DNA of 64,000 bases from Eledone cirrhosa. Its lineage: Eukaryota. The stretch spans positions 361,956,001 through 362,020,000 of the forward strand of contig OZ024741.1 of NCBI GenBank assembly GCA_964016885.1. Direction: 5' to 3'. Made by a program: the position numbers and the translations under genes. This document shows, one piece after another, positions 24,521-59,941 of the stretch (the first letter of the stretch is position 1; the number at the start of each line of letters is the position of its first letter). The notes beneath the pieces are model-generated. The model saw nothing but the letters and a program-made list of their open reading frames with translations, did no database searches and was not told where the DNA came from.

Positions 24521-24887
24521 TATATAATAGAAAAAAAAACGAGTCAGTTTTGTTTACATATAAAAAATATTTATTGTGTATTGACTCAAGGTAACCCATA
24601 GGAGTTAAGGACCTGACTCCAGAGTTAATCTGCTCCTCAGACTGATGATGTGACAAACAATATATTTTTGAAAAAAAAAATTTTTTTTTTGTCACATCAC
24701 CAGTCTGATGAGTAGATTGACCCTGGAATCAGGTCCTTAACTCTTATGGGTTACCTTGAACCAATCCTCTGCGAAACGCCCGTAACAGATACACAATAAC
24801 TATTTTTTATATGTAAACTTAATTTCCTCATTTTTTTTCTATTATATATATATATATATATAATATATATATATAATAGAAAAAAAT
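24521..24887. mobile_element. Fold-back pLTR-like element with hammerhead (24700-24789, plus)
   Basis: Arms about 24521-24656 and 24687-24850. CTGATGA|GTAGATTG...CAATCCTCTGC|GAAA|CGCCCG|TA|ACAGA. A second palindrome TTTTTTCTATTATA..TATAATAGAAAAAA surrounds the terminal TA run. Confidence 0.8.
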
Positions 24888-47541: not shown

Positions 47542-47753
47542 ATATATAGCTTTCACCATATTTTTTACTAAAGGAATTTTAGCCTGATAAGGGTGATGTG
47601 TTGGTGTAATGGTAGCACAGTGGTCGTGATAACCAAAGATGTGGATTTGACTCCCATGTACGTCAATACTCATCTTTTTCCATTTATCTGAGGGTTCTAA
47701 ACCCCATTATCAGGCTAAAATTCCTTTAGTCAAAAATACGGTGAAAGATATAT
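47542..47753. repeat. Inverted repeat (~50-bp arms) ending in TA runs
   Basis: 47542-47593 pairs with 47702-47753. Confidence 0.8.
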
Positions 47754-54343: not shown

Positions 54344-54896
54344 CAGTAATCCCCCGTTTATCGCGGGGGTTACGTTCCAGAACCAACCACGATAAATGAA
54401 AATCCGCGATATAGAGAGACCATAAAGACAACTGCCGTTTTCATAGTTTAAGCCTTAAAATACCTCTCCTACACACTTTAAGTACATATAAACTCATTAA
54501 AACACACTTTTGTATTTAAACACCAAAAACAGCCAGTAACGATCGTACCAGTAGTTACCAATGACGAACATTTCCAGCCACGTTAGCCGCTTGGTGATAC
54601 ACTGCACATCCCCCGTCAATCTAGGAAGGGTTTGTAGTAGATTAGAGAGAAACACAATCAGTAAAACATAATGGAATGAAAAATAGAAACAATTATTTTT
54701 ATAGTTAAAGCCATAAGATGCCCCATCCTTACTTTGTACACTTCAATCACTTTGAAACTTATTTAATAAGTTCAAAATTTAAACACTTTTTATTCAGACG
54801 TGCGTACCGCGATTAAAAAAAAAAAGGTATATTCTAACGAAAAATGCGATGTAGCGGGTCCGCGAAAAGTGAACCGCGATATAGCGGGGGATTACA

Positions 54897-54897
<1 letters not shown>
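54344..54897. mobile_element. pogo/Tigger-like MITE
   Basis: TIR C(A/T)GTAATCCCCCG..TATCGCGG at both ends; TA TSD. Confidence 0.85.
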
Positions 54898-54950
<53 letters not shown>

Positions 54951-54951
<1 letters not shown>

Positions 54952-55684
54952 CATTTTCCTATATGTATATATATATATATACATATAGGAAAATGTTTAA
55001 CCCCGACGGCAGAGCTCAAGCCGTTTCGACGGCTATTTCTGGACTGCCGTCGAAACGGCTTGAGCTCTGCCGTCGGGGTTAAACATTTTCCTATTAGCCA
55101 CTCTACTAACCTAAGTATTGAGTACTCTTGTGCGTTATGGTCCTTACCACACCTCCTTCGTTATGAGAGCTTTTATTCGGAATGTTTGAGTGGAAATTAT
55201 AATATTTCCCTTGTTAACACTTTGAATTTACCCGCCAAAAACGGGGATTGCTTCCCTTGTTGGAATTAACACGTGACAACTAAGTGTTCGCTGGCTACAT
55301 TATTAGCGGCAGCATTTTGTTTGTTCACTCCGCTTTGAGGAAGAACGGAATCCCTGTTGATGAAATGAATCCTCTGTTCGATCATGGAATACCACGAGCG
55401 TGTGTGTTACGTAAGTTGGATAAATGATTTCGGATTTTCATAGAAACACTTTAGACGTATATCGTTTGGTTTGTCCAGGTGTATCTTTTAACCTGTTAGT
55501 TCTTTCGTTACTTTGGTATTGTGTGGTTGGGTTTTGCCTACCGCAATGTTCAATTTGTCAAGCTATTTAAACGTATGTTATTACTCTAAGGACCTACCCT
55601 TATTGAGTGCTTTGCTAACTCATTTCTATTGTAGGTCGACTTTGCTTGCTCACAGCCAAAGCTTCGATTTTACTAAGCTTCCAC

Positions 55685-55687
<3 letters not shown>
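54951..55687 (+). mobile_element. pLTR-like element in (TA)n with double fold-back 5' end
   Basis: Perfect 46-bp palindrome at 54951-54996. Perfect 49-bp arms at 54985-55033 and 55046-55094. The tip resembles hammerhead stem II followed by GAAA-CGGC-TT. Confidence 0.8.
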
Positions 55688-55729
<42 letters not shown>

Positions 55730-55736
<7 letters not shown>

Positions 55737-56032
55737 CACTTTCTAACTATATATATATATATATAGTTAGAAAGTGAACAACACAATATATAACTACTCC
55801 ATTACCAAAGGTTTCAGGACCCTAGACAATATTAATATACGTATAGTTCGTTCATCAGACAGAGAGGTTATCTGTCTGATGAACGAACTATACGTATATT
55901 AATATTGTCTAGGGTCCTGAAACCTTTGGTAATGGAGTAGTTATATATTGTGTTGTTCACTTTCTAATTAAATAGCTCTGTTCTATACATAGAGCACTCC
56001 TTTTCCTTTGCGTTTTCTTCGGAATTACCTAA
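55730..56032 (+). mobile_element. pLTR-like element in (TA)n with double fold-back and hammerhead core
   Basis: Perfect 54-bp palindrome at 55730-55783. Perfect 97-bp arms at 55767-55863 and 55871-55967. CTGATGA at 55876 and GAAA at 55919. Confidence 0.85.
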
Positions 56033-56039
56033 CATACAT

Positions 56040-56160
<121 letters not shown>

Positions 56161-56450
56161 ATGAAAAAAATAAACCCGTGAAACTGTTAAGCAGTTACGC
56201 CCACCCCTGTTTACCCCCATCTCACACCATCACTTTGACACAAAAGTACCCTAACACATTACCAGACAACTATGCACGTCAACCACCACCCGACCACAGC
56301 ATATCATATCACATTTATGGTATCAACTAACACCTCTGAGTTGAATAATAATTTATGTTGAATTGAAAGACAACATAAAAGCACAGACTGAGATTTTATG
56401 TACCCAGTGTATACATACACACACATACACATACATACATAAATATATAC

Positions 56451-56863
56451 ATGGTGGCTGCCAACTCGTTTTCGAGTACGGCCACTACTTTATATCCATG
56501 TAGGAGAACCCCTACCGATGTGCTCAACGAGTGTGACTTTTTAGTCCAGCCAGCGACTTAAAAACTTTGGTACAAACACTACACTTGTGACAATTGCTGA
56601 CACATAGTGCAGGGCCCATGGTACCATGTGACAACAAGTGCAGAGAGATCTCCAGATATAAAGCAATACCTGTGCCGTGAAGCTTTTATAGTGAGCAAAG
56701 GCACTGCACAAAGCCAGTCCCACTCTCTTAACCAAGATGATATTTACCAAAAAGTAGAACAAGTCAACATCATTGGATACCATCAGGGTTGCAGGTGTTA
56801 GATCAGAGTTTTCCTTCTCCTAGAATTCTGCCTTGACAAAGGCTAAGGGGTCATCTCTCCCGG
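56451..56863 (-). mobile_element. Bipartite RTE-derived non-autonomous element
   Basis: RTE 5'UTR-like motif CTAGxAGAAGGAAAACTCTGAT joined to a C-terminal C2H2 finger ([15 protein letters not shown]) and 3'UTR; (TATG)-type tail. Confidence 0.75.
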
Positions 56864-57031
56864 AAATATATACATACATACATACATACATACATACATA
56901 CATACATACATACATACATACATACTTACATACATCCATACATTCACACACATACATACATACATACATTCACACAAACATACATACATACATGCATACA
57001 TACATTCACACAAACATACATACATATATAC

Positions 57032-57269
57032 ATGGTGGCTGCCAACTCGTTTTCGAGTACTTTACATCCATGTAGGAGAACGCCTACCGATGCGCTGACG
57101 AGTGTGACTTTTTAGTCCAGCCAGCGACTTGAAAACTCTGGTACAAACACTACACTTGTGACATTTATTGACACAGTGCTGGGCCCATGGTACCATGTGA
57201 CGACAAGTGCAGAGAGATCTGCAGATATAAAGCAATGCCTGTGCCGTGAAGCTTTTATAGTGAGCAAAG
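57032..57269 (-). mobile_element. 3' half of the same bipartite element, fused to the R4-like ORF
   Basis: Direct repeat of 56451-56700 with small indels. Confidence 0.85.
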
Positions 57270-58995
57270 TGCGTTCCAGATGGTTCTAGCTATCCCATCG
57301 TGTCTCATGGGGAGGTAGTAGCGAGATGACATTCTTTCGCAGCTGGCAACCATGTGGCTTACATCCTCGATCTTTGTTTTACATAGCCTACATTTATTGT
57401 CAGCTGCTGGCCCTCCTCTTTTGTGCAGCAGATATTTGGTAGGGAGTTCTTGTTCCTGTATTGCATAGAGATATCCCTCAAGGTGTGATGTCATAAACTT
57501 GTCGGAACTCCATGCCAGGCTTTTTGAGTGGTTTATCCCCTCTATGGTCTGTGTTTTACGCCTCAAGTATCCATGCACAACTTTTTCTGTAAATTGGTCA
57601 ATTTTCTTATCTTGTTTGAACATTGAATAGGATCTTCCGATTTCTCTGGGTGAGAGATTTATATCAGGCTTTATTCCATATCTCTCCTCCAGATCAGTCG
57701 CTATTCTAATGATATTTTTTTTTTCATGCTCATAAACCTGGGCAAGATGGTTGCCAACCTTTTTCCTCTGTTGAAGGTGTTGTTTCAGTGTTACTATCCG
57801 GGTCTCATATGTTATTAATATTGATTTTAGACCCCGGCCACCTTCCTTGCGTGAGAAGTATAGCCTATCCACATCACCATTGATGTTAAAGTTCCCAGTA
57901 ACACTGAGAAGTTTTCGAGTTCTAACATCCATCTCACTTAGTTCTTGCAATGACCAGTTCAGCAGGCCAAATGTTGGAGTTAGAATTGGCACAGCATAAG
58001 TATTGTGGGCAATGTATTTGTTGTATGCTGACAGTTCTGATGACCATCTTTTCTTTACTCTTCTGAGGTATTCAGTTCTGGTTCTCTCCTTATTTATGGG
58101 TCCATCATATCTGACATTCTCATCCTGTCCAAGATATCTGTAGTTGTCACCTGACTGCAGAGGTTGTATTGTCAGGCCGTTCATCTCTAGATTTCTAGAG
58201 GAGGGCACAGCTCTTCCACGTTTTATTGCCAAATATGCACACTTGGATTCACCAAATTTCATTTTGATGTCGGTTGAAAATTGTGTAATGAGGTCCAATT
58301 GTTTCTTGATGTCATTGATATTTGGCCCATACAACTTCAGGTCATCAACAAAGAAAAGATGGGAGATACTTCTGGGCCCACTTCTTTGTCCACCTTGTTT
58401 CCTGAGTAGGTAAGATAGTGGATTCAGTGAGAGAACGAAGAGTAGCACTGACAAGCTATCACCCTGAAAGATGCCCTTCTGGTAATGTATCTTATCAGTC
58501 TTAACTTGCTCCTTCTCACCTCTAAGGATCAAATTGGTGTACCAGTTCTTGGTCAGGCGTTCAACAGCAGCTACCAATGGTTGTGGGACTTTAGCTAACT
58601 GTAAAGCCTTAATAATCCACCCATGAGGTACCATGCTTTTTGATAGTCCAGCCACACGACAGTCATGTTTCTGCGATTCTTTGCTGTTTTTTCCTGAATC
58701 ATTTTGTTAGTTAGTAGGTGATCTATGCAACTCCACACCTCCCTCTTTCCACCAGCTTGCTCAGGTGTTATGATGTTGTTGGTAGCACAGTGATCCTGTA
58801 AGAACAGGTTAAGGCACCCAGTATATAATTTATACATGATGTTTTGGCAGGCTATTGGGCGGTAATTTTTAGCAAGGGTGGTTTGGCTATTTTGGGGAAT
58901 GAGGAGAGTAGTGGCAGTTGATAACCATCTGGGCAGTTCTTGTGTGCCTTTAATGGTTTCTGAAAACAGCCGTATGAGATCTTGCCGATAGAAAG
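57270..58995 (-). mobile_element. R4/Dong-like (RLE-type) non-LTR retrotransposon, truncated at both ends
   Basis: WLDYQKA, GIFQGDSLS, HLFFVDDLKLY, YRYLG, GGRGL, CRLC..EDVSHMVASC..RHD. Ends before the PD..D nuclease motif. Frameshifts near 58640 and 58860. Confidence 0.93.
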
Positions 58996-59082
58996 TATGT
59001 ATGTATGTATGTATGTATGTATGTATGTATGTATGTATGTATGTATGTATGTATGTATGTATGTATGTATGTATGTATGTAT

Positions 59083-59414
59083 GCCTGGGAGAAATCGAAC
59101 CAACTATGAGATGATTCTACCGTCACACACTCCACGGTACATTTGCAGTGAGTGTGGTTTAATTTGCAAGTCAGTGAGTGGACTGACCAGACTTGGTAAA
59201 ATGAATGAAAACACATCCCAGCTGGTATTACCAGCAGACAGACAGTTCACGTGTGACATCTGAAAATATCTGCAAAACAAAAGCGGGTCTGGAAAGTCAC
59301 CTGCGTGCACATGATCGTGCAAAGCTCTGACAAGAAGTAGCAATCAACATGTATGTATGTATGTATGTATGTATGTATGTATGTATGTATGTATGTATGT
59401 ATGTATGTATGTAT
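59083..59414 (+). mobile_element. RTE 3' end with two C2H2 fingers and (TATG)n tail
   Basis: YICSECGLICKSVSGLTR and FTCDI..ICKTKAGLESHLRAH; (TATG)n on both sides. Confidence 0.7.
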
Positions 59415-59858
59415 GACTCTTAAGAGTCAATGGCCATCCAAAATCACCGGGAGAGATGACCCTTAGCCTTTGTTAAGGCAGAATTCTAGGAGAAGGAAAA
59501 CTCTGATATAACACCTGCAACTCTGATGGTATCCAATGATGTTGACTTGTTCTTCTTTTTGGTAAATATCATCTTGGTTAAGAGAGTGGGACTGGCTTTG
59601 TGCAGTGCCTTTACTCACTGTAAAAGCTTCACAGCACAGGCATTGCTTTATATCTGGAGATATCTCTGCACTTGTCACCACATGGTACCATGGGCCCAGC
59701 ACTATGTGTCAATAATTGTCACAAGTGTAGTGTTTGTACCAGAGTTTTCAAGTCGCTAGCTGGACTAAAAAGTCACACTCGTTCAGCGCATCGGGAGGGG
59801 TTCTCCTACATGGATATAAAGTAGTGGCCGTATGCGAAAATGAGTTGGCAGCCACCAT
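59415..59858 (+). mobile_element. Bipartite RTE-derived non-autonomous element (longest copy)
   Basis: Inverted homologue of 56451-56863; encodes [22 protein letters not shown] then a stop. Confidence 0.8.
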
Positions 59859-59941
59859 ATGTATATATATATACATTTATATGTATGTATGTATATGTAT
59901 ATATATGTATATATGTATATATATGTATATATATGTGTATG

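Follow-up and report, generated by a model that had tools for sequence, protein, structure and literature searches.

Head-to-head hairpins at TA repeats of Eledone cirrhosa: short copies of Penelope-like elements with probable twin priming and a likely, occasional fold-back scar

Introduction

The insertion units of EN+ Penelope-like elements (PLEs) are described as carrying an adjacent, inverted, 5'-truncated copy together with an optional tail (Arkhipova, 2013, PMC3846280; Craig, 2021, PMC8557442). The inverted 5' copies, the tails, TA targeting, hammerhead ribozymes and a self-priming proposal are thus already in print (PMC3846280; PMC8557442), TATA and initiator-like motifs are known in pLTRs (PMC3846280), and the origin of the tandem and inverted ends is stated as an open question (PMC8557442). 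Within the PLEs, the Hydra clade is defined by a CxCX5C linker, the absence of CCHH, CxxC/CxH motifs around E/N and (TA)n targeting (PMC8557442), and a hammerhead core of the U3-A8 variant has been reported from PLEs, in Schistosoma (PMC4209133). The anole element PAc nicks and extends both strands of its target, has two RT start sites that define the tail and uses uncleaved RNA as substrate (PMC11167929). In the twin-priming model for L1 (Ostertag and Kazazian's model, as presented in Meyer, 2010, PMC2837659), a nick in the second strand primes an inverted cDNA and end joining repairs the internal junction. Furthermore, snap-back on TA/AT is a common outcome of DNA repair (PMC5728401).

Here, two neighbouring hairpin structures in a 64,000-nt stretch of the Eledone cirrhosa assembly (hereafter "the window"), set in a 3.0-Gb animal genome, are compared with these systems. 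The structures are real and belong to a known class of element: they appear to be short, dead copies of TA-repeat-targeting PLEs. The inner hairpin is probably the product of twin priming of a PLE at a nicked (TA)n tract, and the outer X-(TA)n-X' palindrome a separate, occasional scar of DNA snap-back (probability of this reading about 0.68).

Layout of the locus

A preliminary description had assigned one geometry to two adjacent elements, namely a short sequence X, a (TA)n run, X reversed at the start of a hairpin arm, and X again at the end of the opposite arm. Rechecked coordinates bear this out. Element 1 has ACATTTTCCTAT at 54951 and 55083 and its reversed copy at 54985, and the arms (54985-55033 and 55046-55094) are complementary at 49 of 49 positions around a 12-nt loop; element 2 has TGTTGTTCACTTTCTAA at 55730 and 55951 and its reversed copy at 55767, and the arms (55767-55863 and 55871-55967) are complementary at 97 of 97 positions around a 7-nt loop. 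The outer TA-centred palindromes (54951-54996 and 55730-55783) are perfect. The third palindrome of this kind is present at 24832-24886, but its non-TA arm is merely an 11-12-nt T/A-rich run. Element 1, described as a single element, is a composite of family A (54985-55163) and a 5'-truncated copy of family B (55164-55687), and the loops of both hairpins are no new sequence, being the left antisense arm continuing unmirrored. The features are as follows.

54898..54950, unstranded: host-side (TA)n tract, the target repeat, ending in CAT
54951..54996, unstranded: outer palindrome of element 1, consisting of a 12-nt X, ATG(TA)8CAT and X', the ATG/CAT being non-element bases that are mirrored
54985..55045, minus strand: inverted arm of family A, from priming site 1 (CCTAT|TA) to the fixed 5' boundary (A of TTAGTCC), including the 12-nt "loop"
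55046..55163, plus strand: forward copy of family A, probably the 3' end of a Hydra-type PLE, with GAAA at 55052-55055, stem III, a predicted cut after C55074, site 1 at 55094 and a tail reaching site 2 at 55163
55164..55687, plus strand: 5'-truncated copy of family B, unrelated to A, from a ~620-nt unit found in partial tandems, with a fixed 3' end before TA
55688..55729, unstranded: (TA)21 tract separating family B from element 2
55730..55783, unstranded: outer palindrome of element 2, consisting of a 17-nt X, C(TA)9G and X', C55747 and G55766 being non-element bases that are mirrored
55767..55871, minus strand: inverted arm of family C, from site 1 (TTCTAA|TA) to the modal 5' boundary (A of ATAAC, at the edge of stem I), including the 7-nt "loop"
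55871..56034, plus strand: forward copy of family C, with a type I hammerhead (CTGATGA at 55876, GAAA at 55919, predicted cut after A55931), site 1 at 55967 and then a ~65-nt tail to site 2
24524..24886, unstranded: third head-to-head hammerhead element, older (arms ~73% alike), with a terminal low-complexity TA-centred palindrome

On the left, the TA tract is abutted by an element with TIRs flanked by TA (54344-54897), likely a Tc1/mariner-type MITE. To the right, direct and inverted dispersed copies of another repeat (56410-59899, ~91% alike over 440 nt) surround a minus-strand region resembling a non-LTR RT gene. Elsewhere in the window, a weak tRNA match at 47595-47665 (33 bits) is likely the head of a SINE. 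Family B (55164-55687; L002-L030) is non-coding, and its 5' ends are often joined at TA microhomology; no clear hammerhead was found in it, and it is possibly a non-autonomous PLE derivative.

Element families and their ribozymes

Judging from motifs of the GIY-YIG region read by eye, family A appears to be the 3' end of a Hydra-type EN+ PLE. Its long copies L171 and L242 (83% identical; together with other loci they cover 1.5 kb upstream) have an ORF that ends 800-812 nt upstream of the 3' repeat, with a C-terminal GIY-YIG-like core, a CxCX5C linker, no CCHH, and CxxC and CxH flanking E/N. In translations read by eye, these features and the (TA)n target coincide with those that define the Hydra clade. 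The GIY-YIG domain of family A scores E 0.069 in Pfam, below the cut-off, and the look-alikes of its ORF in the Atlas lie at 0.95-0.97, one cluster having GIY-YIG in 23% of its members. A third family, D, surfaced in the pattern search, and its long copy L167 has a GIY-YIG domain (Pfam E 6e-8) with cysteines within the core. Element 2 belongs to family C, which has a complete type I hammerhead and a layout like that of family A; in the 30 long copies fetched among those listed, no RT-GIY-YIG ORF was found within 1.5 kb upstream, and these upstream regions are rich in simple repeats. Families A and C share the arrangement of an inverted 5'-truncated copy and an optional tail between two fixed 3' ends. 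Per 1 Mb of evenly spaced DNA, 16 site-1-type ends of family A, 7 of D and 1 of C were counted, and the genome carries tens of thousands of short copies from at least three families. At one locus upstream of a family C copy (L045), ~150 nt with an apparent likeness to U2 snRNA lie between the two arms of one insertion and might reflect a template jump.

Families A, C and D display the core and three stems expected of a type I hammerhead, for which self-cleavage is predicted. In individual copies of C and D the stems pair, those of C with some mismatches, and in the copy of family A that was tested stem III pairs at 5/5 and stem II at 8/11 positions and stem I is weak. The window copy of A is without the 5' half of the ribozyme, and that of C has a weakened stem II (7/10). 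The core of A and D reads UUGA(A/C)AA, a U3-A8 variant; in family A it lies ~45 nt upstream of the tip boundary, so the segment GACGGC-12nt-GCCGTC is not, as had been supposed, a stem II with an overwritten CUGANGA half. At the gathering score, Rfam gave zero hammerhead matches in the window, and unconstrained RNA folding of two ribozyme regions was not better than that of shuffles. The predicted cut sites fall inside the arms (after 55074 and 55931), away from the tips.

The inner hairpin

An unbiased sample of 30 TA junctions per family, chosen regardless of folds, was taken as the first 30 matches each from totals of 5,212 (A), 99 (C) and 6,914 (D); in the family A sample, L188 and L189 are one locus. 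In each family the outer ends of the insertions fall on one of two fixed positions, site 1 or site 2, which lie ~60-70 nt apart and are each joined to TA; any TSDs are masked by the TA tracts. A head-to-head forward partner follows in 25/30 A, 24/30 C and 14/30 D junctions, i.e., 63 of 90 overall. By hand tally, net of overlap, 22 of these 63 loci have an inverted arm that exceeds the forward copy by at least 10 nt on the 5' side; both copies end no more than 3 nt apart in 21/63, the forward copy is the longer in 12/63, and arm and forward copy are without overlap in 7/63. In three family C loci the forward copy begins exactly at site 1. In both window elements the loop is the additional reach of the left arm.

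Extra arm sequence that is absent from the forward copy cannot be made by self-copying. The preliminary account, in which a single cDNA snaps back at the ribozyme and copies itself, therefore does not agree with arms that often exceed the forward copy (22/63, including both window elements), and it is further opposed by the fixed priming site at the outer end of the arm and by tips that are not enriched at the cleavage site. The junctions have the properties of twin priming: the inverted segment is not derivable from the forward one, and each outer end is a priming junction. Arms longer than their partners could likewise result if unstable hairpin tips suffered deletions later on. Arm mismatch is typically 2.6-4.9%, and inner arms are perfect in 6/52 loci, which indicates that the copies in the window either are recent or have been homogenised.

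The inner tip of element 2 is not an assembly artefact, since Logan contigs include a 67-nt contig identical to 55834-55900, found in runs X1 (depth 12) and X3 (depth 10) of one sample, possibly the assembly's own. For family A, antisense-to-sense joints are present in raw Illumina reads of two other samples, namely 55045 to 55111 (3 and 5 reads) and 55045 to 55086 (17 and 26 reads), and many arm-to-forward joints in the read data skip to near or past site 1. The outer palindromes of both elements are known from assembled sequence alone. One contig holds a family C arm-to-forward joint, 55813 to 55950, with telomere-like repeat letters inserted.

The 5' boundary of the arms

Collecting the copies and plotting tip positions against the hammerhead confirmed that the tips are non-random, being placed at the ribozyme or within its 5' half. 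In the unbiased sample, arm limits cluster at reference positions 196-219 in family A (27/30, or 26 without L188), 48-65 in C (17/30) and 204-222 in D (13/30), the reference cut sites being 249, 118 and 278, respectively; the sampling pattern of family A spans the cut site, and arms ending there are invisible in that 30-end sample. A second analysis, anchored downstream and using all loci collected (partly biased sets), is the sole cut-site test for family A. It places 30/73 (A), 41/92 (C) and 45/126 (D) of the limits inside an 11-nt boundary window, and 2, 2 and 3 limits at the cut site against ~2.2, 1.9 and 2.4 expected. Since these counts are close to expectation, the ribozyme cut site was rejected as the position of the tips.

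The boundary lies within loop II in A, at the edge of stem I in C and ~40 nt before the core in D, and hence does not correspond to one ribozyme landmark. In D, TATAAAA begins at position -30 relative to the boundary; in A, TATTTAT begins at -31, and in C a weak TATA-like motif is confined to one subfamily. The boundary base, which lies in TTAGTCC in A, ATAAC in C and CCAGATG in D, falls on pyrimidine-pyrimidine-A in all three families, a context that is initiator-like, and both window arms terminate exactly on it (55045 and 55871). From these motifs we infer that the 5' boundary may be the transcript start. The test for a cap-derived extra C gave a C in 8/28 A, 6/15 C and 3/29 D cases. A splice acceptor was rejected by inspection, as the AG is itself part of the arms, which are not followed by a constant upstream exon. 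In family A (L171/L242/L239), the putative transcript start falls within the hammerhead, which would restrict folding of the ribozyme to read-through or 3' copies.

The outer TA-centred palindrome

Junctions counted by exact pattern establish that the X-(TA)n-X' turn recurs genome-wide, A site 1 contributing 77 loci, A site 2 (the tail end) 194 and D/C 50, against 0 in the reversed controls. In the unbiased sample it is present at 0/90 ends (upper 95% bound ~3%), and the 16 A site-1 ends per Mb imply a rate of the order of 0.1-1%. Of the 48 listed loci at A site 1 that are left after two non-TA spacers were dropped, 5 are discordant at a subfamily-diagnostic base, against 23.5 expected (p 1.5e-8); at A site 2, where 50 listed match strings out of the 194 loci were scored with flanks excluded, 24/50 are concordant against 12.3 expected and 26/50 are discordant. 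Template-coupled turns thus number ~61 at site 1 and ~60 at site 2, and the turn is not special to the end with the inverted arm. The proposal that the outer turn is an ordered step of second-strand synthesis is consequently not supported, since the turn is missing from 90/90 unbiased ends and its template-coupled cases are about equally numerous at the tail and arm ends.

By hand tallies, X is no longer than 35 nt and joined to unrelated DNA in 20 of the 36 A loci examined (of 77) and in 37/50 D/C loci; the other loci hold either two separate insertions or a longer DNA palindrome, which in some cases takes in the flanks. Of 39 short pieces of family D, the first 21, from 19 loci, were classified: 11 lie opposite a long D copy with TA in between, two precede one in the same orientation, four pair mutually and four stand alone. 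In both window cases non-element bases are mirrored, ATG/CAT in element 1 and C/G in element 2; across 18 impure centres, hand tallies gave mirrored non-TA bases in 7 and unmirrored ones in 11. To mirror non-element bases, a template of DNA is required, in keeping with snap-back repair that is primed on TA/AT (PMC5728401), and the earlier suggestion of a fold-back on self-complementary TA is upheld to the extent that the outer turn is a DNA-level event. Both window cases also consist of a short inverted copy of break-adjacent DNA including the junction bases, the pattern that characterises snap-back SD-MMEJ.

In 1 Mb of evenly spaced DNA, mirrored complex flanks occur at 5 of 1,279 TA tracts (2 + 3 from two filters; 0.6 in shuffles), the first filter being noisy (6 hits against 4.4 shuffled, 4/6 of them simple repeats). 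By eye, three of the five are ends of hammerhead elements, one is host-like (L271) and one is ambiguous. One clearly host-like case in five argues weakly for a generic host origin of the turn, and five tracts are too few to separate host repair from an event at insertion. An automatic count of hammerhead-bearing TA flanks (103 against 51 in the control) was too noisy for a comparison of element and non-element rates.

Several related structures were observed. Stubs of family D (13-17 nt) lie in the same orientation between TA runs (L203, L216, L075, L108, L136, L137; G000 C823:38555-38648) and would reflect loop-out repair, slippage or repeated priming. Near-perfect DNA palindromes of 116-338 nt, mostly TA-centred, duplicate whole elements or flanks (L125, L232, L235, L243, L245). 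In the evenly spaced DNA, X-(TA)n-X' occurs in a diverged A-like family with both folds (L382:8531-8589) and in another hammerhead-bearing family (L375:5722-5736).

Proposed mechanism and alternatives

The preferred reading, twin priming followed by an occasional DNA snap-back, can be set out as a series of steps. Insertions end at site 1 or site 2, one tail-length apart and each on TA. The endonuclease would nick both strands, and each 3' end would prime a cDNA, usually one per site, as paralleled in vitro by PAc. Both cDNAs would run off at or before the fixed 5' boundary, the TATA-like motif at about -30 and the initiator-like motif suggesting that this is the transcript start. The two cDNA ends would then be joined head-to-head with small losses or fillers, each templating the second strand of the other. 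Finally, at a few ends the TA tract may break, whereupon the free end would fold on the self-complementary TA, be extended ~12-30 nt into the element and be rejoined by microhomology; the mirrored junction bases and shared subfamily variants are the observed part of this step, for which a host repair of the polymerase-theta type is the likeliest agent.

The outer turn might instead be made during insertion by the element's own polymerase on top of a twin-primed inner fold, whether through snap-back on a TA primer that has come loose or through an additional, abortive round of priming on the same RNA. Such a turn would account for the three in five mirrored TA tracts of random DNA that sit at hammerhead-element ends and for the 13 of 19 loci in which short D pieces face a long D copy across TA (two in the same orientation), and a single RNA template fits the shared subfamily variants. 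Nevertheless, this reading is unlikely, since RNA priming cannot mirror the non-element junction bases seen in both window cases, and the long palindromes that include tips or flanks (L125, L232, L243) and the host-like L271 demonstrate a DNA-level process apart from priming. A bolder version, to which we give slightly less credence still, takes twin priming with run-off at a capped RNA start as the normal PLE route and has the same telomerase-related enzyme make the outer turn, folding back on the TA primer and restarting repeatedly, so that TA runs are laid between cDNA stubs; the same-orientation stubs of L203, L216, L075, L108, L136 and L137 are the basis cited for such restarts. If this were true, the elements would, beyond targeting them, build the TA microsatellites of the genome.

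The self-primed pathway of the preliminary description, in which one cDNA folds back at the ribozyme, serves as its own template, acquires TA and, after a second snap-back, is joined to the target, is very doubtful as a regular route and is already contradicted as a general one. The window's perfect inner arms and shared variants speak for it, as do the 21/63 loci whose two copies have ends no more than 3 nt apart; palindromes where inverted pLTRs meet have prompted a proposal of self-priming (PMC3846280), and cDNA snap-back is known with R2 proteins (PMC11371274). Against these points stand arms that hold sequence missing from the forward copy (22/63) and have a fixed outer end, a cut site without a tip peak, an outer turn at 0/90 unbiased ends that is equally frequent at tail ends, and several short-X loci without a forward partner near the long arm (e.g., L239, L252, L257). 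It is highly improbable that X arose on its own, when another, severely truncated member of the family inserted into the same TA hotspot: tail-to-tail pairs that combine different families or subfamilies are indeed found (L062, L128, L156, L157, L160), and 26/50 strings are discordant at A site 2, but subfamily concordance is far above chance, junction bases are mirrored in both window elements and very short pieces are rare (39 distinct against 6,914 junctions). Independent insertion accounts for a minority of cases at site 1, about two thirds at site 2 and none in the window. Hardest of all to credit is an origin of the outer palindromes as assembly or consensus artefacts at TA runs. These palindromes are known from the assembly alone, and four perfect palindromes in 1.1 kb are unusual given perfect inner arms at 6/52 loci; however, the inner tip of element 2 is confirmed in sequencing data, and many X copies elsewhere mismatch their partners, like aged real DNA.

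The PLE junctions described here separate self-priming from twin priming and predict an exact transcript start for each family. As a probable scar of TA-tract breakage, the outer turn can be counted. In annotation, hairpins of this kind should not be labelled MITEs or fold-back DNA transposons.

Comparison with known systems

In a search of titles and abstract openings, mostly of open-access papers, no publication was found in which PLE junctions are attributed to twin priming or a TA-centred outer mirror is described; sections of the bioRxiv retrozyme preprint 10.64898/2026.07.22.740005 and of PMC13282606 contain nothing bearing on junctions. The closest described systems are the EN+ PLE units, which share with the present elements the head-to-head inverted pLTR, the tail at one end, the type I hammerhead in the repeat and the TATA/initiator-like pLTR motifs (PMC3846280; PMC8557442). 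The tails measure ~60-70 nt here as against 30-40 bp in those accounts, which propose self-priming or endonuclease resolution, whereas the junctions analysed here speak for two cDNAs, each with its own priming event. The outer TA-centred mirror is present here and is absent from the passages on EN+ PLEs in PMC3846280 and PMC8557442. Family A combines all the traits of the Hydra clade as outlined by Craig (2021), i.e., a C-terminal GIY-YIG, CxCX5C, no CCHH, CxxC/CxH around E/N and (TA)n targeting, and differs in a hammerhead core of the U3-A8 variant, known from Schistosoma PLEs (PMC4209133).

PAc of the Poseidon clade (Frangieh, 2024, PMC11167929) resembles the present elements in AT-rich nicking, extension of both strands, two internal RT start sites that define the tail and the use of uncleaved RNA as substrate; it belongs to another clade, and the account in PMC11167929, in the parts bearing on these features, does not derive the head-to-head joint or the fixed 5' run-off. 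Twin priming in L1 is an anomaly with variable internal sites and deletion, whereas here it would be what normally happens, at a fixed site and in most cases with duplication; the forward copy that starts exactly at site 1 in three family C loci is a signature of the L1 type (PMC2837659). Snap-back SD-MMEJ (PMC5728401) and the cDNA snap-back junctions of R2 (PMC11371274) provide the nearest likeness to the outer turn, with a short inverted templated copy by the break, priming on TA/AT and rejoining by microhomology; the present cases differ in being fixed germline scars at the ends of TA-targeting retroelements.
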